Below are positions 11,679 through 58,941 of a stretch of DNA of 64,000 nucleotides, one piece after another. Both the position numbers and the translations under genes were made by a program. The notes under the pieces were generated by a model, which did no database searches, was not told the DNA's origin, and worked only from the letters and a program-made list of their open reading frames with translations. The stretch lies in the NCBI GenBank assembly GCA_050115675.1, contig JASFQB010000004.1, positions 7,601-71,600 of the forward strand. The letters are read 5' to 3'. Numbering within the stretch: the stretch's first letter is position 1; every line of letters begins with the position of its first letter. The stretch is from Candidatus Woesebacteria bacterium (GTDB taxonomy: Bacteria > Patescibacteriota > Saccharimonadia > Saccharimonadales > EFPC-124).

Positions 11679-13118
11679 CTATTGATGCACTATAACCTTA
11701 GTCCCAATTGGGGCAAAGTCGTAAAGTATCTTAGCATCCGCCTCGGTCATGTTTATGCAACCGTGACTCATAGGCGTACCAAAATTGTGATGCCAATATG
11801 TACCATGGAACGCCTCTCCACCATAAAAGAAGCTTACCCATTTAATGTTTGGCACATAATAATATTCACCGTTAATTGTTCCTGACATAGTTTTTAAGGG
11901 ATATTTAGCATAAATAGAACCTTCGCCAATGGCAGTTGGAGTAGCCGCTTTGCCGGTTGATACCAAAAACGTCTGAACTGCCGTATCGCCCGCATAAATC
12001 GTAACCGTTTGACTACTTATATCAACTTCTATCCACTTGCCAGTACCAGCCATGGTTACGGTCTTAAACGGAGCCTCTGTAACTTTTATCGTTTGATCAA
12101 GAGACTTGTTTTGATTTAAAGCATCTACAACATTTACAGATATCGCGTCAGCATCCTGTATTGTCCAGCCAGTTCGCCCTGCAGACAAAACCGTCTCAAC
12201 ACCAGTAGCTTTGTCGATTACCACTTTGCGATCTATTGGAGTTACAGTGACCTTAGGACTTAACGTTTTGTCAACAAGCTGCTCAACAGCGCCTTTATCA
12301 AACTCTATGGTCGCCGTACCGTTAACAAAGTCCGGCATAAAGTGCGTCCAGCTTGCTATGTCAGCTTGGTTTAACTGATATATAGTTGAGCCGTCCATTA
12401 TAAACTTAATTGGCAGATTGATTCTGTTGTTTATATCCTGCTGTACAGTCTGCAAGCCAGAGGCCTTAATTATTGGTTCAACAGGTGCAGTTGCTACGGT
12501 CAGCGTTACGTCGTGTGGATCGAGGGCAAGCTCTGGAAGCGCAGCTTCAAAAGCTCTAAGATCAAAGCCAGAGCCATCCGTACCTTCAACAATGTCATAC
12601 TGATGAGTTTCGTCATTAAATACCAGCTGAGCATCAACCGCATCTACAAATATCTCTGGGTAATTCTCTTGAATGTAGATCTTGAGCATGCCAGGGTCAT
12701 TTATAAACACCAACGGAACATCTTTGCTCTGCCACAACTGTAAATTTTGAAGCACATCGCCAGATTTACGAGCCGCCAAAACGTCCTTAACGGTTGCATC
12801 AACATCAACTGTTAAACCGATTTCCTCGTTAGAGACAACAGTCTGCTTTGCCTCAGTTGCAAAAGTTATATTAAATTTTGACTCGGACTCAACAGCTTTT
12901 CTGACTTCGTCTTCAGTTCTATTAGAAACATCAATACGCCCAACAGAAACACTTGGCGCTGTATAATTGCCATAAAACCAAACGAACAGCCCGCCTGTCA
13001 GCAGTATAATTACAGCCAGGATTACTCCAACCCAAATTAATACCTTGCGTCGCACGCCAGAAGCGCCACCCTTTTGTTTTTTATCCTCAGCCTGTATTTT
13101 TTTAGCTTTTGCTGCCAT
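11679..13118 (-). CDS. L,D-transpeptidase (YkuD domain) with N-terminal membrane anchor
   Basis: C-terminal HGTYWHHNFGTPMSHGCINM (YkuD His...SHGC active site); N-terminal TM helix. Confidence 0.85.
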   Translation of the reverse strand: MAAKAKKIQAEDKKQKGGASGVRRKVLIWVGVILAVIILLTGGLFVWFYGNYTAPSVSVGRIDVSNRTEDEVRKAVESESKFNITFATEAKQTVVSNEEIGLTVDVDATVKDVLAARKSGDVLQNLQLWQSKDVPLVFINDPGMLKIYIQENYPEIFVDAVDAQLVFNDETHQYDIVEGTDGSGFDLRAFEAALPELALDPHDVTLTVATAPVEPIIKASGLQTVQQDINNRINLPIKFIMDGSTIYQLNQADIASWTHFMPDFVNGTATIEFDKGAVEQLVDKTLSPKVTVTPIDRKVVIDKATGVETVLSAGRTGWTIQDADAISVNVVDALNQNKSLDQTIKVTEAPFKTVTMAGTGKWIEVDISSQTVTIYAGDTAVQTFLVSTGKAATPTAIGEGSIYAKYPLKTMSGTINGEYYYVPNIKWVSFFYGGEAFHGTYWHHNFGTPMSHGCINMTEADAKILYDFAPIGTKVIVHQ

Positions 13119-22923: not shown

Positions 22924-23029
22924 AAACTTGGTATTGCCATTTTGGCAACATTAATTCGTAAACCTAACTACAATATTGGCCAAAGATGTGTTATCTTTGA
23001 ATAAGTAAACATTGCAGCATAGGATATAC

Positions 23030-24451
23030 ATGAACTGGAAAACGATTCTAAAGTCACTAAAAAGCCGAGATATGCAAAAGCGCATTTTTATTGTGCTAGG
23101 ACTGTTTGTTGTATACCGTTTTTTGTCGCACATTCCAGTACCCCTAGCTGATCCAACACAATTACGTGTCGTGCTAGAAAACATGATAAGCAGCACAGAT
23201 CTTGGTGGTTTCATGAATCTACTTTCTGGAGGGGCGCTGTCTACAATGTCTATTGTGCTTGTTGGGCTTTCTCCATACATTACAGCCTCTGTAGTAACAC
23301 AACTGCTAACCAAGGCTATTCCAAAGCTAGAAGAGCTACACAAAGACGGAGAAACTGGCAGGCGAAAGATTCAACAATGGACAAGAATCATTACATTACC
23401 ATTGGCGCTTTTGCAATCTGTTGCCTTTATCTTTATACTTCGCCAAACTGTACTTGCAGGCAACACAGGGTTAGATATAACCGCAAACACCTCAATTGAG
23501 CAATGGATACTCATGATAACCTGCATGACCGCAGGGTCCATGCTGCTAATGTGGCTTGGCGAGCTTATGACAGAGCAAGGGATAGGCAACGGCATGTCGC
23601 TTATAATTTTTGTAGGCATAATTGCAGGCCTGCCTCAAATGCTTGGCACTTTAGTAACCTCAATTGGCAGCGTAACAACCGAATCAGACAAGTTACACGT
23701 ATTTAACTGGGTCACACTACCAATAAACTGGATTGCACTTGCAGTGGCGCTGTCGCTTGCGATTACAGGTTTGATTGCACTTTACCTCATTGTTAAATTA
23801 AACGAAGCACAGCGTATTATAACAATAAATTACGCAAAAAGAGTACAGGGCAACCGAAGCTACGGCGGAGTTACAAGTATTTTACCAATTAAAATGATTA
23901 CCGCAGGTGTAATACCCGTAATTTTTGCGGTAGCGTTTTTGGCACTGCCAGCATTTATTGGACAGGTGTTTTTGTCTACAGACAATTTGCAACTTCAGTC
24001 TATTGGAACAAATCTTACAACGTGGTTCCAAACTCCAACCGCCACTACATTTGCCACGGGTGAACTTACCAGCCTAATTTATCCGGCAGTTTACTTTTTG
24101 CTTGTAGTTGGATTTACATACTTTTACACAAGCGTAGTATTTAACGCCAACGACATTGCAGACGGACTACAAAAACAAGGTGGTTTTATAGCAAACGTGC
24201 GCCCAGGACTGCAAACCGAAAAGTTTTTATCTAGGACTGTAAATAGATTAACACTATTTGGATCGTTGTCACTTGGCTTAATAGCCGTACTGCCGTTTTT
24301 GTGCGAATTTATATTTTCAAAATTTGGCATACAGGCGCAAAATCTTGCAATTGGTGGCACAGGGCTATTGATTGTAGTGTCAGTGTCCCTAGAAACACTA
24401 CGTCACATCAATTCTAGAGCGTTGATGGTAACGTACGACCGAGACTACTAA
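23030..24451 (+). CDS. secY: Preprotein translocase subunit SecY
   Basis: 10-TM protein with SecY N-terminus (...RIFIVLGLFVVYRFLSHIPVP...); start placed at ATG 23030. Confidence 0.95.
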   Translation: MNWKTILKSLKSRDMQKRIFIVLGLFVVYRFLSHIPVPLADPTQLRVVLENMISSTDLGGFMNLLSGGALSTMSIVLVGLSPYITASVVTQLLTKAIPKLEELHKDGETGRRKIQQWTRIITLPLALLQSVAFIFILRQTVLAGNTGLDITANTSIEQWILMITCMTAGSMLLMWLGELMTEQGIGNGMSLIIFVGIIAGLPQMLGTLVTSIGSVTTESDKLHVFNWVTLPINWIALAVALSLAITGLIALYLIVKLNEAQRIITINYAKRVQGNRSYGGVTSILPIKMITAGVIPVIFAVAFLALPAFIGQVFLSTDNLQLQSIGTNLTTWFQTPTATTFATGELTSLIYPAVYFLLVVGFTYFYTSVVFNANDIADGLQKQGGFIANVRPGLQTEKFLSRTVNRLTLFGSLSLGLIAVLPFLCEFIFSKFGIQAQNLAIGGTGLLIVVSVSLETLRHINSRALMVTYDRDY

Positions 24452-24461
24452 ACGCACACTA

Positions 24462-24490
24462 TTGACATACAGATAATTGACTATTACAAT
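24462..24490 (+). promoter_or_regulatory. Candidate promoter for the first gene of the secY-infA insert
   Basis: TTGACA-17 nt-TACAAT. Confidence 0.5.
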
Positions 24491-24519
24491 ACACTTGTTA
24501 TGTTTGCCCCTGTTGAGAG

Positions 24520-25263
24520 GTGATCGAGGTGAAGTTTGGCAGAAGACGCCACGATGAATCTCCAAATGTAGAAACAGTGGTCGAGGAAACCACTACTGAA
24601 CCGGAAGCCCCAACTGACCCCCCTCCTGGTATTGTGCCAGGTCTTGGTAAAAAGATTGTTCAGCCCCATGACGGAGACTTTTCAGACAAGGATGTAGATG
24701 ACGACTACGGATATAAAGGCCCGTTATCGTTTGCGAGGGCAGACGAGAAAACCACCACATTTGCAAGGCTAGTTGTTACCCTTAAGTGGAATGCCTTTCC
24801 ACTTGGGCTTTTGATGATCGACATCTTACTCAGTGTTGGTGGCTTTGCGGCCATCTTTAAGCCCGCGATAGACAGTAGTGATGGATGGACTAAAACCGGA
24901 ATCATGGTAAGCATTCCGATCAGCTCGTTCGTGCTAAGTGGCGCTCAGATGTACGCAATCAGCATGATCAAGACAGCTTTTGTGCGAATCAAGAAGAAGC
25001 GCTCAGGACAGAAGATTAATGTGTCGTACTTCGGTCTTGCTGCTCCGCCAATCTTCCTATTGTCATTCTGGTTGATGGACCAGCTCGTTGACTGGATCGG
25101 TTACACATACATGACTACCGGAAATCAAGAATGGGCGATGAACGTTCTTCCGCCAGGCAACGTCCAAACGACCGGTTGGCTAATTGGTGGATGGTTCGTC
25201 TGGGCATGTGCATTTGTCTCAGAGTTTGTCTTTGAGCACAAGGCACGCATTGGAAGTCGATAG
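24520..25263 (+). CDS. Membrane protein (247 aa): acidic/Pro-rich N-terminal region plus ~4 TM helices, hypothetical
   Basis: GTG start (24520, or 24529 with SD gagagg); hydrophobic segments; no motif recognised. Confidence 0.65.
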   Translation: MIEVKFGRRRHDESPNVETVVEETTTEPEAPTDPPPGIVPGLGKKIVQPHDGDFSDKDVDDDYGYKGPLSFARADEKTTTFARLVVTLKWNAFPLGLLMIDILLSVGGFAAIFKPAIDSSDGWTKTGIMVSIPISSFVLSGAQMYAISMIKTAFVRIKKKRSGQKINVSYFGLAAPPIFLLSFWLMDQLVDWIGYTYMTTGNQEWAMNVLPPGNVQTTGWLIGGWFVWACAFVSEFVFEHKARIGSR

Positions 25264-25269
25264 AAAATC

Positions 25270-25303
25270 GCATGGCCGAGAGGAGTACTTTTCTCGGCCA
25301 TGC
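25270..25303 (+). terminator. Hairpin after the 247-aa membrane protein gene
   Basis: Perfect 12-bp stem gcatggccgaga/tctcggccatgc; weak T-tail. Confidence 0.5.
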
Positions 25304-25339
25304 AACAATTCAATATAATCATTTTCACGCTTGAATTGA

Positions 25340-25368
25340 TTGACATTTTTACTGTGATCTTATATAGT
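25340..25368 (+). promoter_or_regulatory. Candidate promoter for the three-gene sub-operon
   Basis: TTGACA-17 nt-TATAGT. Confidence 0.5.
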
Positions 25369-25438
25369 TTAAACGTTCAAAACTAAAAAAGTTTGCACGT
25401 TAACAACGCGCCATATTCCAAAGGAAGGGAGATGGACT

Positions 25439-26620
25439 GTGTCCGCTAAGATTAAAAAGACTATCATTCTTTCTGCTACCAGTCGAAGACGCCGAGCCAT
25501 TGCATTAGCTGGAGTTATTTTTGCGCTGGTTGCCGTAATTGGACACCTACCGCAAAATTGGACAAACCCAATTCCAGAAAGTGCTCAAAAGGCAGCTGCG
25601 GCAGCGATCCAAAAGGGCGAACGTGCCCAAACTGGAGTCTCTGACTCGCTATCAGCCGACAACCTAGCAAAGCAGCAGCAAGCTGCTCGCCACAGCGTCG
25701 AGCTAACAAAATTAGCAACGTCTGAGGATACATACAGCTCAACAAAAGCTACAAACGTAGCCAGAAAGGGTTTTAAGTACGCTTTTTTGTTCATTCCACT
25801 AATTGCGCTTCTTTGGTTTTTTATGCGTAAAAAGAACAAAGTAAGTCTAGGCGAGACGCTGATTTTTAGCACTCTACTAATACTTGCTGCGGCCTTTCCT
25901 GCAGAAATCGCTAAGTACTCTCAGTACCCAGTAAGATACATTGCATATGGTACAACCTGCGGATGGTCTGACGTCTGCTCTAAAGACAAGCTCGTAGAGC
26001 AAACTAACGATCAAACCGTAACGCGCGCCTATATTGACACAATGTATTCAAAGGAACAGCTACAAGGCGAAACCTCGCCTTGGGATGTCAATAGCGCCGA
26101 AGAACACACGCAAAAAGTTCTGAGCGGTCAACCGTTTAGCGCTACTGAGCACGAGTACTACTTGAAGCATTCCACCGAGATGCCCGAAGGCAAACGAACA
26201 CTGACAGCAAGAACTGCGCGGTACTTTACTGCAATTAGAAATAGTGTGATTAATCTTTTTGGCTACACTTCAATCGCAACCGGCCTAACAAGCAGCCTTG
26301 CGGGTTTGCTCTTGATACCGCTTTTTGCCATGACATGGGTCATGCCCAAGCGCGAAAAGCGGAGGAAGACCCTTAACTTAATAGCTAAATCAGCAGTGTT
26401 GCTCCATGTGGCATTTTTTGTCTCGCTGGCAGTTTTCTTTTGCTTCAGCTGGGTAAGTGTCTTGATTCTGAAGAGTGTAGAAATTCTTGGAATTGCCGGC
26501 TGGCCTATTAGCTTAATGCTGATTGTGCCGCTTTGCTGGGCTACATATTACCAAGTTGTAAAGTTTGCAAAGTGGTCTAATAAAAAAATTAGGCCACCAA
26601 AAACAATGAGAGTCAGGTGA
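25439..26620 (+). CDS. Polytopic membrane protein (393 aa, ~6 TM, two large soluble loops), hypothetical
   Basis: GTG start with SD gggaga; TM pattern; no motif recognised. Confidence 0.7.
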   Translation: MSAKIKKTIILSATSRRRRAIALAGVIFALVAVIGHLPQNWTNPIPESAQKAAAAAIQKGERAQTGVSDSLSADNLAKQQQAARHSVELTKLATSEDTYSSTKATNVARKGFKYAFLFIPLIALLWFFMRKKNKVSLGETLIFSTLLILAAAFPAEIAKYSQYPVRYIAYGTTCGWSDVCSKDKLVEQTNDQTVTRAYIDTMYSKEQLQGETSPWDVNSAEEHTQKVLSGQPFSATEHEYYLKHSTEMPEGKRTLTARTARYFTAIRNSVINLFGYTSIATGLTSSLAGLLLIPLFAMTWVMPKREKRRKTLNLIAKSAVLLHVAFFVSLAVFFCFSWVSVLILKSVEILGIAGWPISLMLIVPLCWATYYQVVKFAKWSNKKIRPPKTMRVR

Positions 26621-26625
26621 TTTCA

Positions 26626-27336
26626 ATGGCCAAGGTCATAAAGCAGAAAAAGAAGTCAAACACGACCATGGGAATACTTCTTCTAATATCCCTTGCTCTA
26701 ATTGGAACATTGCTAAATAGATTAAATAGCGGCCCGGAATCTATCGCCACATACACTGGCACTGGACCGGACTCCGCCCCTACAGAAGTATTGCCTGCGC
26801 CCACAGCAACAATAAAACCCGGCGAAACGCTTAAAGCACCGCCAGGCGCAAAAGTAGGCGAGTGGGTGGGTGATAACAAAAATAGGTTCAACAACGCCGC
26901 CATCATCATTACCGAAGGCATGAACTATAAAGCAAACTTTGGGAAAGACGTACCCTGCCGCGGCTGGATCGTGGCCATCGGAACATCACTCCAAGAGAGC
27001 GGACTAGTTAACCTAGGCGACCTCGGAAAGAAGAATGATCATGACTCACTTGGGCTTTTTCAGCAAAGGCCTAGCCAAGGCTGGGGAACCCCAGAGCAAG
27101 TCAAGGATCCCGTGTATGCATCGCGCAAGTTCTATCAAAAGCTCACAAGTTCAAGGGTTGCGGGCTGGGAAAGCATGCGGCTTGCTGATGCCGCACAAGC
27201 GGTACAGAATTCAGCCTACCCTGATTACTATCAAAAACGTCGTAATGATGCGATTGATATTGTACACTTGATACTGAACTACAATGGAGTATCTACCGCC
27301 ACATGCCCCAGTAAGAGTAATCTACAGGGGCTATAA
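26626..27336 (+). CDS. N-terminally anchored secreted protein, probable lytic-transglycosylase/lysozyme-like peptidoglycan hydrolase
   Basis: TM anchor then SLQESGL...DHDSLGLFQQRPSQGWG (catalytic-Glu-Ser plus GLxQ pattern of the SLT-like fold); SD aggtga before ATG 26626 (alternative GTG 26617 overlaps the upstream stop). Confidence 0.5.
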   Translation: MAKVIKQKKKSNTTMGILLLISLALIGTLLNRLNSGPESIATYTGTGPDSAPTEVLPAPTATIKPGETLKAPPGAKVGEWVGDNKNRFNNAAIIITEGMNYKANFGKDVPCRGWIVAIGTSLQESGLVNLGDLGKKNDHDSLGLFQQRPSQGWGTPEQVKDPVYASRKFYQKLTSSRVAGWESMRLADAAQAVQNSAYPDYYQKRRNDAIDIVHLILNYNGVSTATCPSKSNLQGL

Positions 27337-27348
27337 GGAGGTTTACCT

Positions 27349-28215
27349 GTGGTAAGGAAGCAGCGGGAGGTGGCTAGGCGAATACCAGCTACTCCCCAGC
27401 AAAGGGCACTACCCCCTGGCAAGACTACAACTCGAGTGGTTCGCGTTGTAAAAAGACAGCGAAAAGTTGGTATTTTTGAACGCCTTTGGCGTCGAATACA
27501 ATGGAAGTACAAGTTACCAATTATTGCATTGGCAAGTATTTCCTTTTTTACCTACCTCGCAACACCCGAGGGTGCGACCAACGAGACATTTGTTCTAGGT
27601 CCAGGAGAGGCGGCTCCCGCTCAAACAAACCAAGATGAAACTGCTGAAGGGTCAAACCCAACAGCAGGAGAAGCTAAGATCTATACCGGCGTGACCACTG
27701 GGATCTCATGGACTTTAGCATATCCGGCGAGTGACAATAAGCAAGCCTTCAGATACTATTTTGCCAATGGAAAATACTGTGGCGACATTGGAGATGCGAG
27801 CCATCAAAACGCAAGCTTCCCGCAAGACCACACTCCCCGCAGCGCGGAAGTGTACAATGGCAAGGCGATGAAGCGTGGATGGATTTACGCTCAAGACTTT
27901 TGTGCAGGAGGGAGTTTTGACCTTCCCCTGTTTGTCCGCTGGATTCTTGACGAGAAGCGCAAAGATCCTGGTAAATATCCAGAGATCAAATACATAATCT
28001 CTCGAAACGCAGCCAATCAGGCATGCGGCAAGAAGTATTTTGGATTCTTCGGGTTTAATCCTGATGGATCAATACGCTGGCAAGCAAACAGTGGACACAC
28101 TGGCCACGTGCATATTAGCTACAAACCAGATTATGAAAAAGCCAGATCTACAGTTATGTTTGATTTTGCCAAATGGCAATCTGGACACAGCATTAGCGAT
28201 TGTGGTATTTCGTAG
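27349..28215 (+). CDS. N-terminally anchored secreted protein, possible zinc peptidoglycan peptidase (HxH signature)
   Basis: GTG start with SD aaggagg; TM anchor; C-terminal NSGHTGHVHISY resembles the HxH metal motif of LAS/M23-type peptidases; the rest is unrecognised. Confidence 0.35.
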   Translation: MVRKQREVARRIPATPQQRALPPGKTTTRVVRVVKRQRKVGIFERLWRRIQWKYKLPIIALASISFFTYLATPEGATNETFVLGPGEAAPAQTNQDETAEGSNPTAGEAKIYTGVTTGISWTLAYPASDNKQAFRYYFANGKYCGDIGDASHQNASFPQDHTPRSAEVYNGKAMKRGWIYAQDFCAGGSFDLPLFVRWILDEKRKDPGKYPEIKYIISRNAANQACGKKYFGFFGFNPDGSIRWQANSGHTGHVHISYKPDYEKARSTVMFDFAKWQSGHSISDCGIS

Positions 28216-28218
28216 TAA

Positions 28219-28252
28219 AGCTGCCCGCCCCGCAAAACGGGCGCGGGCAGCT
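28219..28252 (+). terminator. GC-rich terminator closing the insert
   Basis: 10-bp stem agctgcccgc/gcgggcagct. Confidence 0.6.
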
Positions 28253-28277
28253 CTAAATAAAATTATTAATCGTCAAC

Positions 28278-28382
28278 TTGACACTTAGCATGTGTGCGCT
28301 ACAATAACTATTAGTTATTGCTGCGTTTTGTGCAGTTTATCTTAGAAACAGGCTTTACAACTGCAGTTTTTACCTGTATAAT
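28278..28382 (+). promoter_or_regulatory. Two tandem candidate promoters upstream of infA
   Basis: TTGACA-16-TACAAT (28278-28305) and TTTACA-16-TATAAT with upstream TG (28355-28382); the proximal one leaves only a ~10-nt leader without SD. Confidence 0.4.
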
Positions 28383-28397
28383 CTATGATTGTAATTC

Positions 28398-28685
28398 ATG
28401 GCTAATAATAAAGAAGTTATCAAGATAGTTGGACGCGTGGTGGAGGCTTTGCCTGGCGCCCAGTTTAATGTTGAGCTTCAAAATAGCCATATTGTCCGTG
28501 GACTAGTTTCGGGTAAGATGCGAAAGCACTATATTCGGCTTGTTCCGGGCGACTGGGTCGAAGTTGAGTTAACCCCTTACGATCTCACAAAGGGCAGAAT
28601 CACCTTCCGATTCAATGAACAACCTAAAGACAATAAAGGGAGAGGCACGCGTGAAGGTCAGACCAAGCGTAAAGAAAATCTGTAG
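28398..28685 (+). CDS. infA: Translation initiation factor IF-1 with ~22-aa basic C-terminal extension
   Basis: S1-like IF-1 core ([20 protein letters not shown]...KGRITFRF) followed by [23 protein letters not shown]. Confidence 0.93.
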
Positions 28686-40076: not shown

Positions 40077-40742
40077 TCATTTCTGATATGAACGTTTTTT
40101 ATCAAGTTCGTCAGCAAGCCATACACCGACTCTTAGCATCTCCTGCAAATTCTTTACAGTTATGGACATGTTTGTGGCATATATAATTAAGGTGTCATCA
40201 TCGATTTCGTAATCAAATTGCTTAAAATGATGCGCCAGCATTGCGGTTATTTCAGGACTAATCATTGAACGCACCTTGTTTATGTCACTTTGATTTGCCA
40301 AGATCTTAAAATATTTTAAAAATTGCGGATCATCCTGCAAAAAACTACCATATAAATTTTCGTGCTTACTATATTTGGCAAAAAAATCATAATAAAACGA
40401 TTTTTCATGGTGATTTGCGTCTAAAAATACATGTGGCAGCCCCTTGCTTTTAAGATCAATCTGCATAATTTGCCATTTGTAGTTTTTTGATTGCCCAGGC
40501 AAAAAGTTTAGCGTATTTTGACGCTCGACCACAACAACATCGCGCCCCCTAAAGCTACCCATGGCACAATAGTCGTCTTTATGACTTACACTAAGCGTGA
40601 CGCCACGAACAACCCATTGGTCGCTTTCATGTTGATTTATTTTGCCAAAATACACAAATTTAAATTTTGAGGCAAATTGTTTTATCGCCCTTTTTGCAGC
40701 AACATCTTGTACTGTCGAAATTTTACTTTTTAGTATGTTCAT
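40077..40742 (-). CDS. Hypothetical protein (221 aa), last gene of the glycogen operon
   Basis: ORF overlapping the GH15 3' end by 20 nt (start ATG 40742); no motif recognised. Confidence 0.6.
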   Translation of the reverse strand: MNILKSKISTVQDVAAKRAIKQFASKFKFVYFGKINQHESDQWVVRGVTLSVSHKDDYCAMGSFRGRDVVVVERQNTLNFLPGQSKNYKWQIMQIDLKSKGLPHVFLDANHHEKSFYYDFFAKYSKHENLYGSFLQDDPQFLKYFKILANQSDINKVRSMISPEITAMLAHHFKQFDYEIDDDTLIIYATNMSITVKNLQEMLRVGVWLADELDKKRSYQK

Positions 40743-42723
40743 GTGGCTCCGCTTGTTCAATTGACTCAAATGGATCTGAAGCCAAATCTATTACCGAGTT
40801 TACAAACTCGGCCTGACTCCACGCCAGTGGAGCAACCGACGAAAATGCTTGAGTTTGAGAATTTATTTGTTCAGACAAGACTCCGCTCTCCAACATATTA
40901 TCCTTTACCCAGTTTATTATACGCCTAGCTTGCGGCGCTCGACCAGTCTCTATGTAGTATTGCGCCATCCAAAGAGTGGTTACAAACCAAGGGTTGCCCA
41001 GGCTGCTAGGGTCGGTACGGTTATAGCTATCATATTCGTAACGGGGAATAGAAAAGGCGGTCTTATCGTTAAAACCAAAAGTTCGTTCTAAGGTTAGATA
41101 AGACTGTTCAACTTCGTCTGACCCTACATCGAACAGACCAAACATAAACGCTCCATAAAAGCTTGATACGTCAACGGTTTCATCATATTTTATATTTGCG
41201 TGGCCCTCTTTGTCTTTTGTCCGCAAAAAACCTTTATAAAAGAACTGCTTATCTCTATTAAATAGCATATTGCGTGCGGAGTGCTGGATATCGTCCGCTA
41301 CAACTTGCCAGCGCAAAAACTCTTGCTGGCGCCCCATAACCTCGGCCAAACGTGCACTAGCCAACAGAGCTGCATGGACTACGGCAGTCGTATATGTTGT
41401 AGTTAATAGCTTTTCTTCCCACAAATCGTAAGAGGCGCGCGGTAACTTGGTTATGTCATCAATATAACTAGCCAAAAAGTTTGCAGCTGGCCTAACTAGC
41501 GAGTCATAAAACTCTTGTAGCATTTGATCATCTTTTGTCGCCTCGTAGTACTGGCCAAGCAAAAATAGTACAATGGCTGTTTCGTCCTCTTGTATTGGAG
41601 GAATAACGCGCCCTGCCGCACAATAGGGATGCCAACTGCTTCCAAGCGTGCCATCTGACATGTATTTATGCATCAAATAGCCCTCTGGCTGCAAAGCGTG
41701 TCTACAAAAGTATAAAAAGTTTTTTACTTCTTCGTAGTAGCCCATGCGCAATAACGGCCACAAAACAAACGCTGCATCGCGCGGCCAACAATAGGCATAG
41801 GCATCGCGCGAGTAGTTTAACATTGTAGTATCTACAGCAGCTATAACAGCGCCACGCTTATCTATATGAGCTTTAATAATAAGCAAACTATCAATCAGCG
41901 GGTTTGCAAACTCTTTGTCTACATGATACAAATAGTTTTTTGCAGGCTTTAGCCAATCATGCCAGTAAGTGGCAGTTTTTAACATTCGTTTATGTATGCC
42001 TTCTATGCGAATTCTTCTAAAAATATGCAGGGCCTCGCGATGCTCTAAACCCGCGGACACCCAATAGGTTAACCGTTTTGATTCGTGAGCTTCTATAAAC
42101 AAGTTAAAACCCATCACCGAATCAACGCTGCCGTGCTCTACAGGATTGCCGCTCAAAACACCATCCTCAGCATCTTTATACGTACCTTCTTTGCCCTCAA
42201 TAGCGTAAACTCCAACAGAGTACTGATCAAAAGGCTCACCCTCAGATGTTTGCGCCCCAAAAACAAATGCGCGACTACCTTTATAGTGCAAAATTGCGTT
42301 GTCTAGCGGTAAATATTGCGCAGTGTCACCATTAAGACTGTTGCTAATGCGCATAACTTGATGCAAAAATATACGAATTTCGCGTGGGGTATCCCATTCG
42401 TTTACTACGTGAATGTTTTGAATAAAGGCGTTAAAATCCGCATCCACACAATTTTGCAGCTGCACCAAAACTCCAAGACGATCGTTGCGCGCAGTAACTT
42501 CGCCAATTAAAGCGTCGCGTTCGTATTTTATTTTAAATGACCAATTACCGTCATCTAGCCAGCTAAATCCATTTGCTGTCCAAACGCCAATTTTCCACCT
42601 CATATGACCTGCTGCTGCATGGTTTTCTAGACCAACATAAGGATAGTAAAAGTCATGAATTTCGCCATAAAGATTAATACCCACATTTAACGAACCATTG
42701 CTTAAAATTAGTGGACGAGTCAT
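40723..42723 (-). CDS. Glycoside hydrolase family 15 (glucoamylase/glucodextranase-like)
   Basis: AYAYCWPRDAAFVLWPL and (alpha/alpha)6-type C-terminal region typical of GH15. Confidence 0.8.
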   Translation of the reverse strand: MTRPLILSNGSLNVGINLYGEIHDFYYPYVGLENHAAAGHMRWKIGVWTANGFSWLDDGNWSFKIKYERDALIGEVTARNDRLGVLVQLQNCVDADFNAFIQNIHVVNEWDTPREIRIFLHQVMRISNSLNGDTAQYLPLDNAILHYKGSRAFVFGAQTSEGEPFDQYSVGVYAIEGKEGTYKDAEDGVLSGNPVEHGSVDSVMGFNLFIEAHESKRLTYWVSAGLEHREALHIFRRIRIEGIHKRMLKTATYWHDWLKPAKNYLYHVDKEFANPLIDSLLIIKAHIDKRGAVIAAVDTTMLNYSRDAYAYCWPRDAAFVLWPLLRMGYYEEVKNFLYFCRHALQPEGYLMHKYMSDGTLGSSWHPYCAAGRVIPPIQEDETAIVLFLLGQYYEATKDDQMLQEFYDSLVRPAANFLASYIDDITKLPRASYDLWEEKLLTTTYTTAVVHAALLASARLAEVMGRQQEFLRWQVVADDIQHSARNMLFNRDKQFFYKGFLRTKDKEGHANIKYDETVDVSSFYGAFMFGLFDVGSDEVEQSYLTLERTFGFNDKTAFSIPRYEYDSYNRTDPSSLGNPWFVTTLWMAQYYIETGRAPQARRIINWVKDNMLESGVLSEQINSQTQAFSSVAPLAWSQAEFVNSVIDLASDPFESIEQAEPHEHTKK

Positions 42724-43937
42724 TTACTGCGCTCCTTGTGCGCGTCTAAAATCCGCAGTTTTAAATCTCTAAGCACATTCATATAATTTACAAAACCATC
42801 ATAAGGCGAGTCGTACGGGCTAAAATAGGCATGTACATCACCATCCGTAAACCACTTAGTGCACATATAGTAAAAATGATCAGAGGTTTGCAACTTGCGC
42901 CAGTCATTAATTATCGTATTGTCGCCACTGGTAAGTACAATTTCTTCTAAATTATACAAGCTATTTATAGCTTGCTGTTGCATTGTGTTGCCCAACCAGG
43001 CCGTTAAATCACGCTCAGCGTCTGCCCAGGTAATTGTTTGAGGCGCGTCTATTTGCCCCTTTGGCTCAAATTTATCTATTGCCTCACTTGGAGTTACAAA
43101 CATATTGCCGTTAAATTTACCAAATTCTGCTGGCAGAGCAGTTAAAAAGTCAAATATTCCATGCTCTTTCCACTGATGCTCGCCAAACGTTTCGTAGTCC
43201 ATAAACAAATTTACCAATTGTTGGTCAGAAGGAAGGGCATTTAGCCAATGTGTAAATTTTTTGACTGTTAGTGGCCACTCAGCCCAGCTGCGGTCAGAGA
43301 ACCTAAACGCAATATCATCCGAAAGTTTATAATTTTTGAGTAACAATCTGATATTTTTAGTATTAATAGGACGATATACATGGTTTGGGCTTTGCTGATT
43401 TAGAATCCTATCCCAACCTTCAGCTACAATCCCCTTATACCCAGCTTGATCAGCCCAGGCGGCAACATCGTTGTTATACGCAAGCTCGGTATTTCTAAAC
43501 ACAACAGGTACAATTCCAAAAATGTCTTGAATTTTTTGGTGATGCATGTGCACTTGCTTTTCAAACTCAAACATAGAGTAAAAAAACGCCAAGCTGTGAT
43601 AGTAAGTCTCGGCCAAAATCTCTACTCGCCCTGTGGCCACTAAACGCTTAAAACTATCTAGTGTTTGAGGTGACCAAGCTTCAAGTTGGTCCAATAAAGT
43701 GCCCGTAATAGATAGTGCTAACTTAAATTCTGGATGATCTTTAAGAAGTTTTAGCAAACATTCATTGGTCTTAAGGTAAGATTTGTGCGCAACCTTTTGC
43801 AGAACATCATAGTTTATATCGTGCCCGTCTTTAACCATGGCAAAGTAATTGCTGTTTTTTCCTGCATCAAAAACACTATAGCCTGCCACTCTGTAGGGCT
43901 GATGCGCGTGCAAGTAAAGGCAAATGGAGCGACTCAT
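42720..43937 (-). CDS. Glycoside hydrolase family 57 (alpha-amylase/branching-enzyme-like)
   Basis: N-terminal LYLHAHQPYR and MDYETFGEHQW (nucleophile Glu region) GH57 signatures. Confidence 0.8.
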   Translation of the reverse strand: MSRSICLYLHAHQPYRVAGYSVFDAGKNSNYFAMVKDGHDINYDVLQKVAHKSYLKTNECLLKLLKDHPEFKLALSITGTLLDQLEAWSPQTLDSFKRLVATGRVEILAETYYHSLAFFYSMFEFEKQVHMHHQKIQDIFGIVPVVFRNTELAYNNDVAAWADQAGYKGIVAEGWDRILNQQSPNHVYRPINTKNIRLLLKNYKLSDDIAFRFSDRSWAEWPLTVKKFTHWLNALPSDQQLVNLFMDYETFGEHQWKEHGIFDFLTALPAEFGKFNGNMFVTPSEAIDKFEPKGQIDAPQTITWADAERDLTAWLGNTMQQQAINSLYNLEEIVLTSGDNTIINDWRKLQTSDHFYYMCTKWFTDGDVHAYFSPYDSPYDGFVNYMNVLRDLKLRILDAHKERSK

Positions 43938-45160
43938 ACGCGAACCTCTTTTGCAGTAGTTTTTGAATATAAACCACCAATTTTTTGCGCAACATCACGC
44001 CATGACATGTTCTTAAATTCGGCATGCGATTTAGTGAGCAGTTCGTGATGTAGACTAGGGTAATAGGTTGCCGCAAGTATATAATCGGCCATTTTTTGCG
44101 TATCCCAGTAGTCAAACTTTAAAACATTTTTTAGCACCTCACCAACACCCGATTGCTTAGAAATTAAAGCTGGAGTGCCACAACCAATTGCCTCTAGTGC
44201 TGCAATGCCAAAAGGCTCCGAAACAGACGGCATTACAAACACGTCACCAATAGCAAAAGCATCTCGCCACTTTTTCCCGCGCACAAATTGCCCTGTAAAA
44301 ATAACATTTTGACTAATGCCCAAATCTGCGCTAAGCTGCAACAGCTCGTGATATTGTTCGCCACTGCCAGCAATTAAAAACAGTATTTTAGAATTTTTTT
44401 GTATAACCAATTTTGCAGCCATTAGTAATTGAGTCAGACCTTTTTGCACAGCAAGCCTGCCAACATTTACCACGACTTTGTAGCCATACTGCTTCATTTT
44501 GCTTAAATACACATAAACATTATCACCGTCAATTGGGTTAAAACTTTCAGCATCTATGCTATTATGGACAACCTCAACTTTATTTGACGGAATTTGATAA
44601 TTACTTGCAATAATATCTTTTGTAGATTGACTTACCGCAATAACGCGATCTGCCATCATTAAAGTATTGTATTCAATATCATGAATTAACGGATTGCCCG
44701 AATGTCCGCCAGCACGATCAAACTCGGTAGCATGAACATGTGCAATTAGTGGCTTTTGACTAAGTTTTTTAGCACATGCAGCCGCCTCGAATGTTAGCCA
44801 ATCATGCGCATGAATAGCGTCGTAATTACTTTTTTTAACAATTTTGCTTACAGCTTTAGTATATCCAGACTGTAAATTGCGAAGCTCAGACATATGCGCA
44901 GATATATTGCCGATTTTAGGTGGCTCAAGTTTAGTATTATATACATTTTCGAGGCCACTTCTGCAAAGCTGCCCATGCGCGCAGGACAATGCAGGGACGA
45001 CATTCATAAAATCTATTTGATTGTGATCATCTTGATATGGAACTACAAAATCAATTTCGACACCACGCGTCGACAAGGCCTTGCAAAGTTCAAAGCAGGC
45101 AACGCCCAAACCTCCGGTATTATAAGGTGGCAGTTCCCACCCAAGCATTAAAATCTTCAT
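43934..45160 (-). CDS. Glycogen-synthase-like glycosyltransferase (GT-B, GT4/GT5)
   Basis: MKILMLGWELPPYNTGGLGVA N-terminus; C-terminal E..G....EA motif (PSVSEPFGIAALEA). Confidence 0.8.
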   Translation of the reverse strand: MKILMLGWELPPYNTGGLGVACFELCKALSTRGVEIDFVVPYQDDHNQIDFMNVVPALSCAHGQLCRSGLENVYNTKLEPPKIGNISAHMSELRNLQSGYTKAVSKIVKKSNYDAIHAHDWLTFEAAACAKKLSQKPLIAHVHATEFDRAGGHSGNPLIHDIEYNTLMMADRVIAVSQSTKDIIASNYQIPSNKVEVVHNSIDAESFNPIDGDNVYVYLSKMKQYGYKVVVNVGRLAVQKGLTQLLMAAKLVIQKNSKILFLIAGSGEQYHELLQLSADLGISQNVIFTGQFVRGKKWRDAFAIGDVFVMPSVSEPFGIAALEAIGCGTPALISKQSGVGEVLKNVLKFDYWDTQKMADYILAATYYPSLHHELLTKSHAEFKNMSWRDVAQKIGGLYSKTTAKEVRV

Positions 45161-57357: not shown

Positions 57358-57504
57358 AATAATGGCCAAATAATAGCACAAATTACTGCCCAGCTAAAGA
57401 TCAGGTTCATTGCGCATCAAGCCGCTATGCTACTACAATAAAGTAAAACTGAATTTTAACTGTACGCTTTTAGGTTATTGTATGCTAACATTGACGACAG
57501 TACC

Positions 57505-58941
57505 ATGAAAAATAAAGTATTAGCCTTTTTAACCAAGCCCTCTGTAGTACTATTTTTTGGGTTCTTTATTTTTTTTGCATCACTAAGCACACTTTTATAT
57601 GCTAGCAATACTTCTGATACTGTTATTCGCTCGGACGGAAAGGGCTATTACTTATATTTGCCAGCTACATTTATCCATCACGATATAAGCATGCAATGGA
57701 CAGAATATCTTCAAAAAAGTGATCCATTTTATTCGGGGAGCGGGGAATGGTATGGGTTAACTGAATCTCAAAACGGCAACTATTTAAATAAGTACACAAT
57801 AGGCTTAGCTATTTTGTGGGCACCTTTTTTTGTGAGTGCACACATTGCCGCCAACATGCTAGGATTAACCCCTGACGGCTTTTCTGCAATATACAACGGC
57901 GCCATTGCAATTGCAGCGGCTTTTTACACAAGCCTTGCTTGCATTATGCTGTATAAACTTTTTGCAAGACATTTTTCTGCGAAGGCATCGCTACTTACTA
58001 CGATTGCAATAGCACTGGGAACAAACCTGCTTAACTATGCCACGTCCGATGGGTGTTTTACGCATGTATACTCGCTATTTTTAATTAGCAGCGTACTCTA
58101 TCTAACTTCAATATGGTACAAAAAACCAAGCTATAAACTCTCTGTTGGCATTGCGGCAATATTTGCGCTAGCAGTTCTTGTTCGTCAGACCACTATAATT
58201 TTTGCAATTATCCCCATCTTGTGGAACGTCTGCAACATTAAGCAACTCAAAGAAAGATTGGCTTTATTTTGGCAAAGACGAAAATACTTATTTGCCATGG
58301 CAGCAAGCTCATTCGCAGTAATACTCCCTCAGTTGATATACTGGAAAATTGTTTCGGGAAATTGGCTAGTATTTTCTTATCAGGGAGAATCTTTTAATTT
58401 TGCAAATCCACAAATTATAAATATACTGTTCTCGACAGATCGAGGGGTGTTCTTTTGGGCTCCAATTCTTACAATATCCCTAATTGGGTTAGTGCTTGCA
58501 AAAAAATATCTAAAAGAATGGGCGATAGGCATATATGTTTTCTTGCCGATATGGCTATGGGTAGTGTCGTCATGGCATAGTTGGCAATTTGGCATGAGTT
58601 ATGGACACAGAGCATTCATAGATGTTTTTCCGATATTTGGACTGCTGATTGCACTTACATATTCAAAATTAAACTCAAAAATATTAAAAAATTGTTTTAT
58701 AATTTTTTGTACTTTGTGTATTTTAGCAAGCCTGTTTTTAACGCATTTATATTGGATATCCGCAGTGCCAGCCGCAGGGACGACCTGGGATCAGTACGTC
58801 AAAATCTGGCAGCACGAGACGGGGCTAATACCACTTCGCGGATTAACATCTGGCTTCTTAGGGCTAATTGGATTGATCGCACTAACACTTGCCCCAGCGC
58901 TGCTGTATTTTTTGCACAAAACGAATAACAACCGCGGATAG
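57505..58941 (+). CDS. Polytopic membrane protein, possibly GT-C-type glycosyltransferase
   Basis: >=10 TM helices, first extracytoplasmic loop with DGKGYY; function uncertain. Confidence 0.35.
   Translation: MKNKVLAFLTKPSVVLFFGFFIFFASLSTLLYASNTSDTVIRSDGKGYYLYLPATFIHHDISMQWTEYLQKSDPFYSGSGEWYGLTESQNGNYLNKYTIGLAILWAPFFVSAHIAANMLGLTPDGFSAIYNGAIAIAAAFYTSLACIMLYKLFARHFSAKASLLTTIAIALGTNLLNYATSDGCFTHVYSLFLISSVLYLTSIWYKKPSYKLSVGIAAIFALAVLVRQTTIIFAIIPILWNVCNIKQLKERLALFWQRRKYLFAMAASSFAVILPQLIYWKIVSGNWLVFSYQGESFNFANPQIINILFSTDRGVFFWAPILTISLIGLVLAKKYLKEWAIGIYVFLPIWLWVVSSWHSWQFGMSYGHRAFIDVFPIFGLLIALTYSKLNSKILKNCFIIFCTLCILASLFLTHLYWISAVPAAGTTWDQYVKIWQHETGLIPLRGLTSGFLGLIGLIALTLAPALLYFLHKTNNNRG

Follow-up and report, generated by a model that had tools for sequence, protein, structure and literature searches.

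Four genes between secY and infA

The window analysed here is a stretch of 64,000 nucleotides of contig JASFQB010000004.1, from a metagenome-assembled genome (MAG) named 'Candidatus Woesebacteria' at NCBI. Its secY (23012-24451) and infA (28398-28685) genes flank four open reading frames (ORFs) on the same strand (+), termed g1, g2, g3 and g4. The last two are the subject of this work. An earlier reading made from the letters alone (the sequence-only reading) had taken their products for two anchored exoproteins with different peptidoglycan-cleaving chemistries, and they are considered here as candidate halves of a peptidoglycan hydrolase, a putative muramidase (g3) and a putative zinc peptidase (g4).

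24520 to 25263, plus strand: g1, by ORF call the first gene of the inserted module, encoding a 247-aa membrane protein
25439 to 26620, plus strand: g2, encoding a polytopic membrane protein of 393 aa; in every occurrence of the module it immediately precedes g3
26626 to 27336, plus strand: g3, encoding a membrane-anchored putative muramidase of family GH184, from sequence, profile and AlphaFold2 (AF2) fold matches
27337 to 27351, plus strand: Shine-Dalgarno sequence GGAGG, 7-nt spacer and GTG start of g4, immediately 3' of the g3 stop, read from the sequence
27349 to 28215, plus strand: g4, 288 aa, encoding a membrane-anchored, divergent MT3-like predicted zinc peptidase of the LAS type (clan MD)

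The g2 stop codon (26618-26620) ends 5 nt ahead of the g3 ATG, and a gap of 12 nt separates the g3 stop, TAA at 27334-27336, from g4. Because these spacings are so short, and with GGAGG-N7-GTG following right after the g3 stop, g3 and g4 had rightly been described as translationally packed. From ATG 26626, the start in the public record (P0001), g3 encodes 236 aa; from GTG 26617 it encodes 239 aa, and g3 residues are numbered here in the 239-aa form. Promoter-like sites were found in the two gaps upstream of g1 and g2.

24462 to 24490, plus strand: TTGACA-17-TACAAT in the secY-g1 gap, 11/12 consensus matches
25340 to 25368, plus strand: TTGACA-17-TATAGT in the g1-g2 gap, 11/12 consensus matches

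Further sigma-70-like sites with 11/12 matches were seen at 28278-28305 and 28354-28382, in the gap before infA. All of these are consensus matches only, and their total number in the region is not above that in shuffled sequence.

Downstream of infA, the window continues with rpmJ-rpsM-rpsK-rpsD-rpoA. In three other Saccharimonadales (L014, L015 and L016, with SecY 73-77% identical) infA directly follows secY. Since the two genes adjoin in these relatives, the g1-g4 block (24452-28397, ~3.9 kb) is a lineage-specific insertion in the ribosomal-protein superoperon. Neither adk nor map was found at the secY-infA position in any genome examined. No integrase, repeat or phage gene accompanies the block, and its ORFs are intact. 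Two related loci, L001 and L002, carry g1-g2-g3-g4 between secY and infA just as the window does, L001 with an additional 167-aa gene upstream and a gene termed g5 downstream. In a Saccharimonadales MAG, L013, genes for a g2-like protein, a GH184 protein, a g4-like protein and a further 250-aa protein all lie downstream of nusA. The order g2-g3-g4 is kept in L001, L002 and L013, and the module is retained at the same site across genomes in which SecY is only 80% and g4 50% identical, with invariant catalytic residues. By hydropathy, the g1 product has one strong transmembrane-like segment, and it is 40% identical to the product of the same-position gene in L001. The g2 product has about six such segments, with homologues in L001 (8256-9272; 28% identity, E 7e-29) and L013 (2443-3627; E 4e-10). 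Searches of Pfam, NCBIfam and PHROGs gave no match for g1, g2 or g4, g2 giving only sub-threshold ones. Together with two polytopic membrane proteins, g3 and g4 form a conserved module. A scan of GTDB with 12 g4-family sequences returned one locus only, in a strict pattern search that makes this estimate of its rarity a lower bound.

SecY of the window (23030-24448) is 73-75% identical to proteins of Candidatus Saccharimonadales/Saccharimonas. With SecY closest to Saccharimonadales, the Woesebacteria label of the source MAG is probably wrong at class level.

Both g3 and g4 begin with a basic stretch followed by a hydrophobic helix, in agreement with the earlier description of both proteins as anchored.

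26668 to 26724, plus strand: hydrophobic anchor of g3, MGILLLISLALIGTLLNRL, Kyte-Doolittle mean 1.96, AF2 helix 16-36
27514 to 27564, plus strand: hydrophobic anchor of g4, LPIIALASISFFTYLAT, AF2 helix 52-71

The g3 N-terminus holds 5 K/R within 14 residues, ahead of a single hydrophobic segment, and residues 1-55 of g4, ahead of the anchor, hold 18 K/R against 2 D/E. Since neither a lipobox nor an A-x-A cleavage site was seen in g3 or g4, we infer that the two helices are signal anchors and that both proteins have an N-in/C-out topology. In both, the helix is followed by a 40-50-residue low-complexity linker with low predicted local distance difference test (pLDDT) scores, and then by a confidently predicted globular domain. 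A conserved motif lies just outside each anchor, Y-(T/E)-GTGP-x-SAPTE in g3 (~26752-26790) and ETFVLGPGEAAPA in g4 (~27583-27621). These juxtamembrane motifs are invariant across homologues that are only 50-80% identical overall and could be a processing or docking site.

The predicted muramidase domain of g3

The strings singled out in the sequence-only reading, SLQES and DHDSLGLFQQRPSQGWG in g3 and SHQNASFPQD and GHVHIS in g4, are all present, and because they are invariant columns of a large (g3) and a small (g4) family they are not chance occurrences. In g3, they fall within a domain with the following features.

26872 to 27282, plus strand: GH184 catalytic domain of g3, pLDDT >90, aligned to residues 7-137 of 8b2e
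26995 to 26997, plus strand: E127, predicted catalytic Glu of LQES, aligned with KsGH184 Glu41 (LTES/LQES)
27037 to 27087, plus strand: DHDSLGLFQQRPSQGWG block of g3, in which D141 and S144 align with KsGH184 Asp66 and Ser69 (DHDS)

Searched against the PDB as a single sequence (phmmer), g3 matched the solved structures of two muramidases from fungi, 8b2h (E 4e-10) and 8b2e (E 1e-7). A profile of 47 g3 homologues raised these matches to E 1.6e-25 and 2.3e-25 and spanned residues 7-137 of the 143 of 8b2e. The AF2 model of g3, with pLDDT >90 in the domain, matched 8b2e and 8b2h with probability 1.0, a template-modelling (TM) score of 0.74-0.75, a root-mean-square deviation of ~3 A and 30-32% identity over the full catalytic domain, and these were its only significant PDB fold matches in Foldseek. 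Structure prediction, which could have returned a non-hydrolase fold, thus returned a known muramidase fold, lysozyme-like, mostly alpha-helical and two-lobed. The structures of KsGH184 (8b2e) and TtGH184 (8b2h) define CAZy family GH184 (Moroz et al. 2023, PMC10394673). Mutagenesis of KsGH184 has shown that Glu41, where helix 2 ends, is essential; Asp66 and Ser69 line the site. The activity of the fungal enzymes was detected in a reducing-sugar assay, indicating hydrolysis rather than lytic transglycosylation (PMC10394673).

In g3, E127 is invariant in the 47 homologues and is placed at the end of predicted helix 114-128; D143, S144, G146, Q149, Q150 and R151 are likewise invariant across homologues. 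With KsGH184 and TtGH184, g3 shares the position of the catalytic Glu, where the second long helix ends, and the DHDS-G-(I/L)-FQQR block. Unlike the fungal enzymes, g3 is bacterial and membrane-anchored and lacks an SH3-like wall-binding domain, and the loop leading from its catalytic Glu to DHDS is shorter by 10-11 residues, a short-loop type that it shares with Actinobacteria. By these sequence and model comparisons, g3 is a bacterial member of GH184 and a predicted muramidase.

The Glu-Ser...GLxQQ arrangement of g3 had earlier been likened to that of goose-type or SLT lytic transglycosylases. Since E127, D141 and S144 align with Glu41, Asp66 and Ser69 of KsGH184, the arrangement does appear to be a lysozyme-superfamily active site (E127, DHDS), but the goose-type/SLT family assignment gives way to GH184. 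An assignment of g3 to GH23/SLT was rejected, as there was no Pfam SLT match at E <=1 and the GH23/g-type matches in Foldseek had E 0.3-2 and TM scores <=0.3. The further fold matches of the model, to a GH19 chitinase, the lysozyme-like domain of phi29 gp13, SLT transglycosylases and goose-type lysozymes, all had E >0.1; outside the family itself, the N-terminal domain of phi29 gp13 is the closest structural neighbour of GH184 (PMC10394673). The likeness of g3 to GH23 and goose-type lysozymes is therefore at superfamily level only. No Pfam or NCBIfam model was found for g3, and in PHROGs only tape-measure and endolysin families were matched.

A likeness of g3 to actinobacterial proteins, proposed in the sequence-only reading, was recovered by BLAST. 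Among 7713 homologues, the best non-self matches are proteins of Micromonosporaceae and other Actinobacteria. Identity to the top Micromonosporaceae matches is 54-61% in the BLAST alignments and 59-69% over the catalytic domain, where it falls to 45-47% against the GH184 domains found alongside g4-like proteins in other Saccharimonadales. In the top relatives, the GH184 domain lies on the N-terminal side of an M23 (PF01551) or NlpC/P60 (PF00877) domain, and the annotation names the peptidase only. Thousands of actinobacterial entries called 'M23 family metallopeptidase' or 'NlpC/P60 family protein' (P0006-P0120) hold such an unannotated N-terminal GH184 domain, for which Pfam has no model.

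In a neighbour-joining (NJ) tree that sampled the top matches only, GH184 of the window clade grouped with actinobacterial sequences in 98.5% of 200 bootstraps and never joined the other patescibacterial GH184 domains. Transfer from Actinobacteria had been proposed as a point for phylogenetic testing; the tree shows the two grouping together but not a direction of transfer, as Actinobacteria alone are monophyletic in only 17%. The GH184 domain also occurs in 548 phage records, almost all of actinophages, mostly in tape-measure or minor-tail proteins and sometimes in lysin A.

The g4 domain and the MT3 peptidases

The globular domain of g4 and its candidate active-site motifs are as follows.

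27682 to 28194, plus strand: predicted catalytic domain of g4, pLDDT 92-98, family profile positions 41-207
27802 to 27831, plus strand: H152...D160-H161 (DHTP), candidate first zinc-ligand His, H161 preferred
27886 to 27897, plus strand: YAQD183, predicted zinc-ligand Asp, AF2 strand 181-185, aligned with AID308 of VldE
28096 to 28119, plus strand: H250-T-G-H253-V-H255-I-S257, predicted HxH motif and upstream general-base His, AF2 strand 253-258

A single-sequence search of the PDB with g4 gave nothing usable, and the g4 domain had no tblastn match in 50,697 phage genomes. A word-indexed search found only four close relatives. With a profile built on the extracellular part, exhaustive scanning by HMMER extended the family to 55 representatives, mostly metagenome proteins, with one from Micromonospora and one from Saccharimonadales. 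H255 is present in all 55 sequences, and H152, H161 (DHTP), D183 (YAxD), H253 and S257 are conserved in >=90% of them. None of the 55 has a Pfam model for the catalytic domain. C-terminal wall-binding domains were found in 13 members, namely PG_binding_1 (7), LysM (3) and PG_binding_3 (3). PHROG endolysin matches of family members fall on these wall-binding domains, not on the catalytic domain, and were rejected as domain evidence. One member is encoded on a phage contig of 36 kb, where tail genes (SPP1_Dit) precede it and small ORFs follow. Another, P0130, lies on a 47-kb contig (L018) with ParA, HTH regulators and a YoeB/Phd toxin-antitoxin pair, which looks like a plasmid or integrative element and not a phage.

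The g4-family profile matched one solved protein in the PDB (hmmsearch), 9flh, named 'LysM domain-containing protein' (E 4e-4), which corresponds to the MT3 domain of VldE. Literature searches found no paper naming 9FLH-9FLM, and the chain was identified as VldE by the numbering in PMC11667670: 9flh (...TENHYDHVHVS) fits residue for residue the E368/H370/D372/H373/H375 numbering of VldE (Spr1875) of S. pneumoniae. The VldE MT3 domain has the LAS fold (clan MD) and is a crystallographically and enzymatically characterised L,D-endopeptidase that binds zinc via H301, D308 and H375, with H370 as the proposed general base, and cleaves the L-Ala-D-iGln bond (PMC11667670). MT3 is 'motif 3' of the TM4 tape-measure protein, for which peptidoglycan hydrolysis has been demonstrated (PMC1796659). 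A search with the VldE fragment returned 717 phage records, almost all of them actinophage tape-measure proteins, plus some endolysins. For GH184 and MT3 alike, the phage records come almost all from Mycobacterium, Gordonia or Streptomyces phages.

The ending GHVHIS of g4 had been compared to the HxH zinc sites of LAS and M23 enzymes, with profile-profile alignment proposed as the check. An MT3 alignment of nine phage genes and VldE was compared by hhalign with the g4-family alignment, which gave 94.8% probability, E 5e-8 and 100 aligned columns across the entire MT3 domain. The controls, an unrelated alignment, the reversed MT3 alignment and ten column-shuffled MT3 alignments, gave <=2.8%. 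In the alignment, D183 of g4 corresponds to D308 of VldE, and H250-x2-H253-x-H255 to H370-x2-H373-x-H375. The order of predicted secondary-structure elements in g4 agrees with that of MT3: a helix, G-x-(I/G)-G, (D/E)-H, an A-x-D strand, a helix, a KY-I-I strand, W, and an H-x2-H-x-H strand. Both are also associated with wall-binding domains, lysozyme-like domains and phage tails. The identity between g4 and VldE/MT3 is only about 16-17%, and g4 differs by a 12-21-residue insertion between the His and Asp ligands and by another one (helix 221-229) ahead of the final strands; the g4 family further has an additional near-invariant His, H152. By these profile comparisons, the g4 family is distantly related to MT3, the LAS zinc endopeptidase domain of VldE and motif 3 of mycobacteriophage tape-measure proteins. 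The LAS half of the earlier comparison thus holds (hhalign, 9flh), but the M23 half does not: g4 has no PF01551 match at E <=1 and no HxxxD, and M23 domains were found only in the actinobacterial relatives of g3.

In canonical LAS enzymes, the first zinc-ligand His lies 3-6 residues before the Asp (H-x(3-6)-D), six in M15 and MT3. Several features of g4 weigh against reading it as an anchored enzyme of this type. It lacks H-x(3-6)-D, R176 sitting 7 residues ahead of D183; Foldseek of the confident g4 model gave no significant PDB match, LAS structures included (best E 0.17); and the g4 anchor is moderately hydrophobic, below the 19-residue Kyte-Doolittle cut-off. Because Foldseek gave no significant PDB match, the LAS assignment of g4 rests on sequence profiles. 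The top Foldseek matches, MutL/PMS2 ATPase domains at E 0.17-1, were regarded as noise. In a comparison with predicted viral structures (BFVD), a pair of Caudovirales proteins, both uncharacterised, came first (probability 1.0), followed by tape-measure proteins at E ~0.02.

Ahead of D183, conserved His residues are found no closer than H161 (x21) and H152 (x30), and the shortest spacing in the family is H-x11-D. Since DH161 of g4 sits where the 'EH' of MT3 does, parted from the Asp strand by an insertion, we interpret the H161-D183 spacing as a loop insertion, with H161 the likely first zinc ligand and H152 the second candidate. SHQNASFPQD had already been doubted as a ligand pair for its 7 intervening residues, and with good reason: H152-x7-D160 was rejected as the LAS H-x-D pair, the zinc-ligand Asp aligning to D183 instead. 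Taken together, the alignments indicate that g4 likely works like a LAS zinc endopeptidase, while it qualifies only partly as a canonical LAS/MT3 member.

The g5 genes (L001 10894-11667; L013 4986-5738) encode proteins of 250-257 aa with 44% mutual identity and with H-x6-D and H-Q-D-H-F-H motifs, which suggests a second, more canonical LAS peptidase. In hhalign this reading received just 12%, and the window lacks the gene.

A proposed two-part hydrolase and its possible targets

We propose, with a probability of roughly three in four, that g3 and g4 are the two halves of a bifunctional peptidoglycan hydrolase, encoded as two tightly coupled genes. In this model, the N-terminal anchor would hold each protein in the cytoplasmic membrane, and the catalytic domains would be presented outside the cell on 40-50-residue linkers rich in Pro, Thr, Gly and Ala. 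The g3 domain would hydrolyse the MurNAc-GlcNAc glycan strand with E127 as catalytic acid. The g4 domain would cut the stem peptide; VldE and M15-type phage lysins, taken as analogues, make L-Ala-D-iGlu/iGln the most likely bond. The zinc ligands of g4 would be D183, H255 and H161 (or H152), with H253 and H250 assisting catalysis. The two genes may be co-transcribed and translationally coupled with the upstream g2 (plus g1) as one envelope module, and membrane tethering beside g2 and g1 could confine cutting to a defined patch. The topology, the bond specificity, zinc binding by g4 and the cooperation with g1 and g2 are the parts of this model that we infer from the comparisons above.

That a glycan-strand cutter and a peptide-stem cutter belong together, as the sequence-only reading had it, is borne out by fusion proteins. 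In P0125 (491 aa) and P0128 (471 aa, on a 1.1-Mb contig, L012), an anchor, a GH184 domain and a g4-type domain occur in a single chain, P0135 being a like fragment, whereas at the window locus the two domains sit in separate genes, with a stop codon, the 12-nt gap and an anchor of their own. The secreted actinobacterial GH184-M23 and GH184-NlpC/P60 proteins (Asanoa, Micromonospora, Actinoplanes), whose GH184 domain is closest to that of g3, also place a glycan cutter ahead of a peptide cutter; they carry both activities on one polypeptide and use an M23 or NlpC/P60 peptidase, in contrast to the separate MT3-like gene found here. Similarly, phi29 gp13 (lysozyme-like plus M23), ICEBs1 CwlT (muramidase plus NlpC/P60), pIP501 TraG and pCF10 PrgK direct a glycosidase and a peptidase at one substrate, as g3 and g4 would. 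The present pair differs from them in that the activities are split over two anchored proteins, without phage or type IV secretion system (T4SS) context and with other domain families. Pairing a glycan cutter with a peptide cutter is thus well known (phi29 gp13, CwlT, actinobacterial GH184-M23). What appears new is the unmodelled, divergent MT3/LAS offshoot represented by g4, with its remodelled His-Asp spacing, the split-versus-fused relationship of g3 and g4, the insertion in the secY-infA gap, and the presence, in a Saccharibacteria-like genome, of a GH184 copy with actinobacterial affinity.

As to which wall is cut, remodelling of the producer's own and attack on that of an actinobacterial host are judged about equally likely. 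The anchoring, the growth-linked operon position and the genome's own wall-building genes, such as a YkuD L,D-transpeptidase, speak for the former. A more specific proposal, that the pair is a weapon or feeding device by which an epibiotic Saccharibacterium, where it touches its actinobacterial host, thins or opens the host peptidoglycan, using lysin domains of actinobacterial or actinophage type, can be put forward only tentatively. The SecY identities place the organism in Saccharimonadales, whose cultivated members grow on Actinobacteria (PMC10633639). Both domains are overwhelmingly actinobacterial or actinophage-borne, with the phage records (GH184 548, MT3 717) mostly of tail proteins that breach the wall from outside, and the window-clade GH184 joins Actinobacteria and not the GH184 of other Saccharimonadales, a sign of lateral exchange. 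Because it is rare and occupies different sites in different genomes, the module also looks accessory and patchily distributed. Peptidase and lysozyme homologues adjoining virB4 have been reported to be essential for epibiotic growth in S. epibionticum (PMC12102498). However, both enzymes are anchored in the producer, and linkers of only ~45 residues would limit their reach; no secretion-system, pilus or adhesin gene lies within the 64-kb window. An autolytic role is equally available since the genome also has peptidoglycan enzymes of its own. A more elaborate version, which we consider unlikely, holds that g1-g4 form a host-wall-breaching organelle built from laterally captured tail-lysin domains of actinobacterial or actinophage origin (GH184 'motif-2-like', MT3), growth-coupled through the superoperon, with g1 and g2 as membrane platform or conduit where epibiont and host meet. 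The g4 family would then be a LAS subfamily that is new and unmodelled and has its metal site remodelled.

Improbable, too, is that the pair acts as a 'space-making' hydrolase (cf. VirB1, CwlT, TraG, PrgK) that opens the producer's own wall for a T4SS, type IV pilus or competence machine, with g2 as a VirB6/ConG-like partner. In ICEBs1, conG encodes a polytopic membrane protein and is followed by cwlT, encoding a two-activity hydrolase, and the order of a polytopic membrane protein and then a two-activity hydrolase recalls this arrangement. In addition, T4SS hydrolases of monoderms are bifunctional, and patescibacterial T4SS clusters are often without a recognisable VirB1 (PMC12102498). Yet no VirB4, VirB6, VirD4 or pilin gene was found in the window or in the module neighbourhoods of L001, L002, L012 and L013, and g2 has no TrbL/VirB6 match even at E <=1. 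An association of the module with a T4SS was therefore rejected. More broadly, T4SS, pilus, adhesin, secretion-system and phage genes were all absent from the 64-kb window.

Slightly less probable still is a non-catalytic g4, serving as a wall-binding or regulatory partner of g3 in the manner of the degenerate LytM factors EnvC and NlpD, or performing other chemistry. The non-canonical His-Asp spacing, the failure of the model to match LAS enzymes significantly in the PDB and the want of a curated family model would fit such a role. Degenerate LytM factors have lost the zinc and catalytic residues, whereas every g4 residue aligned to a zinc or catalytic residue of VldE is conserved across the 55 divergent sequences. 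In the phage and actinobacterial relatives, moreover, this domain is the only candidate catalytic domain ahead of the wall-binding domains.

That the block is decaying prophage or integrative-element cargo, landed in the secY-infA gap without cell function, is very improbable: it is an insertion relative to other Saccharimonadales and both domains are typical of phage tail lysins, but the intact ORFs without integrase, repeat or phage gene, the same-site retention with invariant catalytic residues at 80% (SecY) and 50% (g4) identity, the strong Shine-Dalgarno sequence and the promoter-like sites all argue against decay.

The proposed two-part hydrolase would turn two hypothetical genes, and a 55-representative family that has no Pfam, NCBIfam or PHROG model, into testable enzymes with named catalytic residues. 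It also draws attention to the bacterial GH184 domains hidden in thousands of proteins annotated solely as 'M23 family metallopeptidase'. A muramidase domain of actinobacterial type, paired with a peptidase related to actinophage tail lysins, is a concrete candidate for the epibionts' passage through, or remodelling of, the host wall; if only the own wall is remodelled, the pair would be an ordinary autolysin pair in an unusual place (secY-infA).

Elsewhere in the window, a gene with PG_binding_4 and YkuD L,D-transpeptidase domains (11679-13118, minus strand) lies upstream of the ribosomal-protein genes. A similar YkuD gene occurs in L012 (7211-8641, minus strand), two genes from the fused GH184-g4 gene, which may be coincidence. 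A 487-aa ORF at 57478-58941 (plus strand) matched no Pfam family at E <=1e-5. At 40723-45160 (minus strand), genes for GH15, GH57 (with a polysaccharide-deacetylase-like match) and GT4/starch-synthase-like proteins form an alpha-glucan metabolism block.

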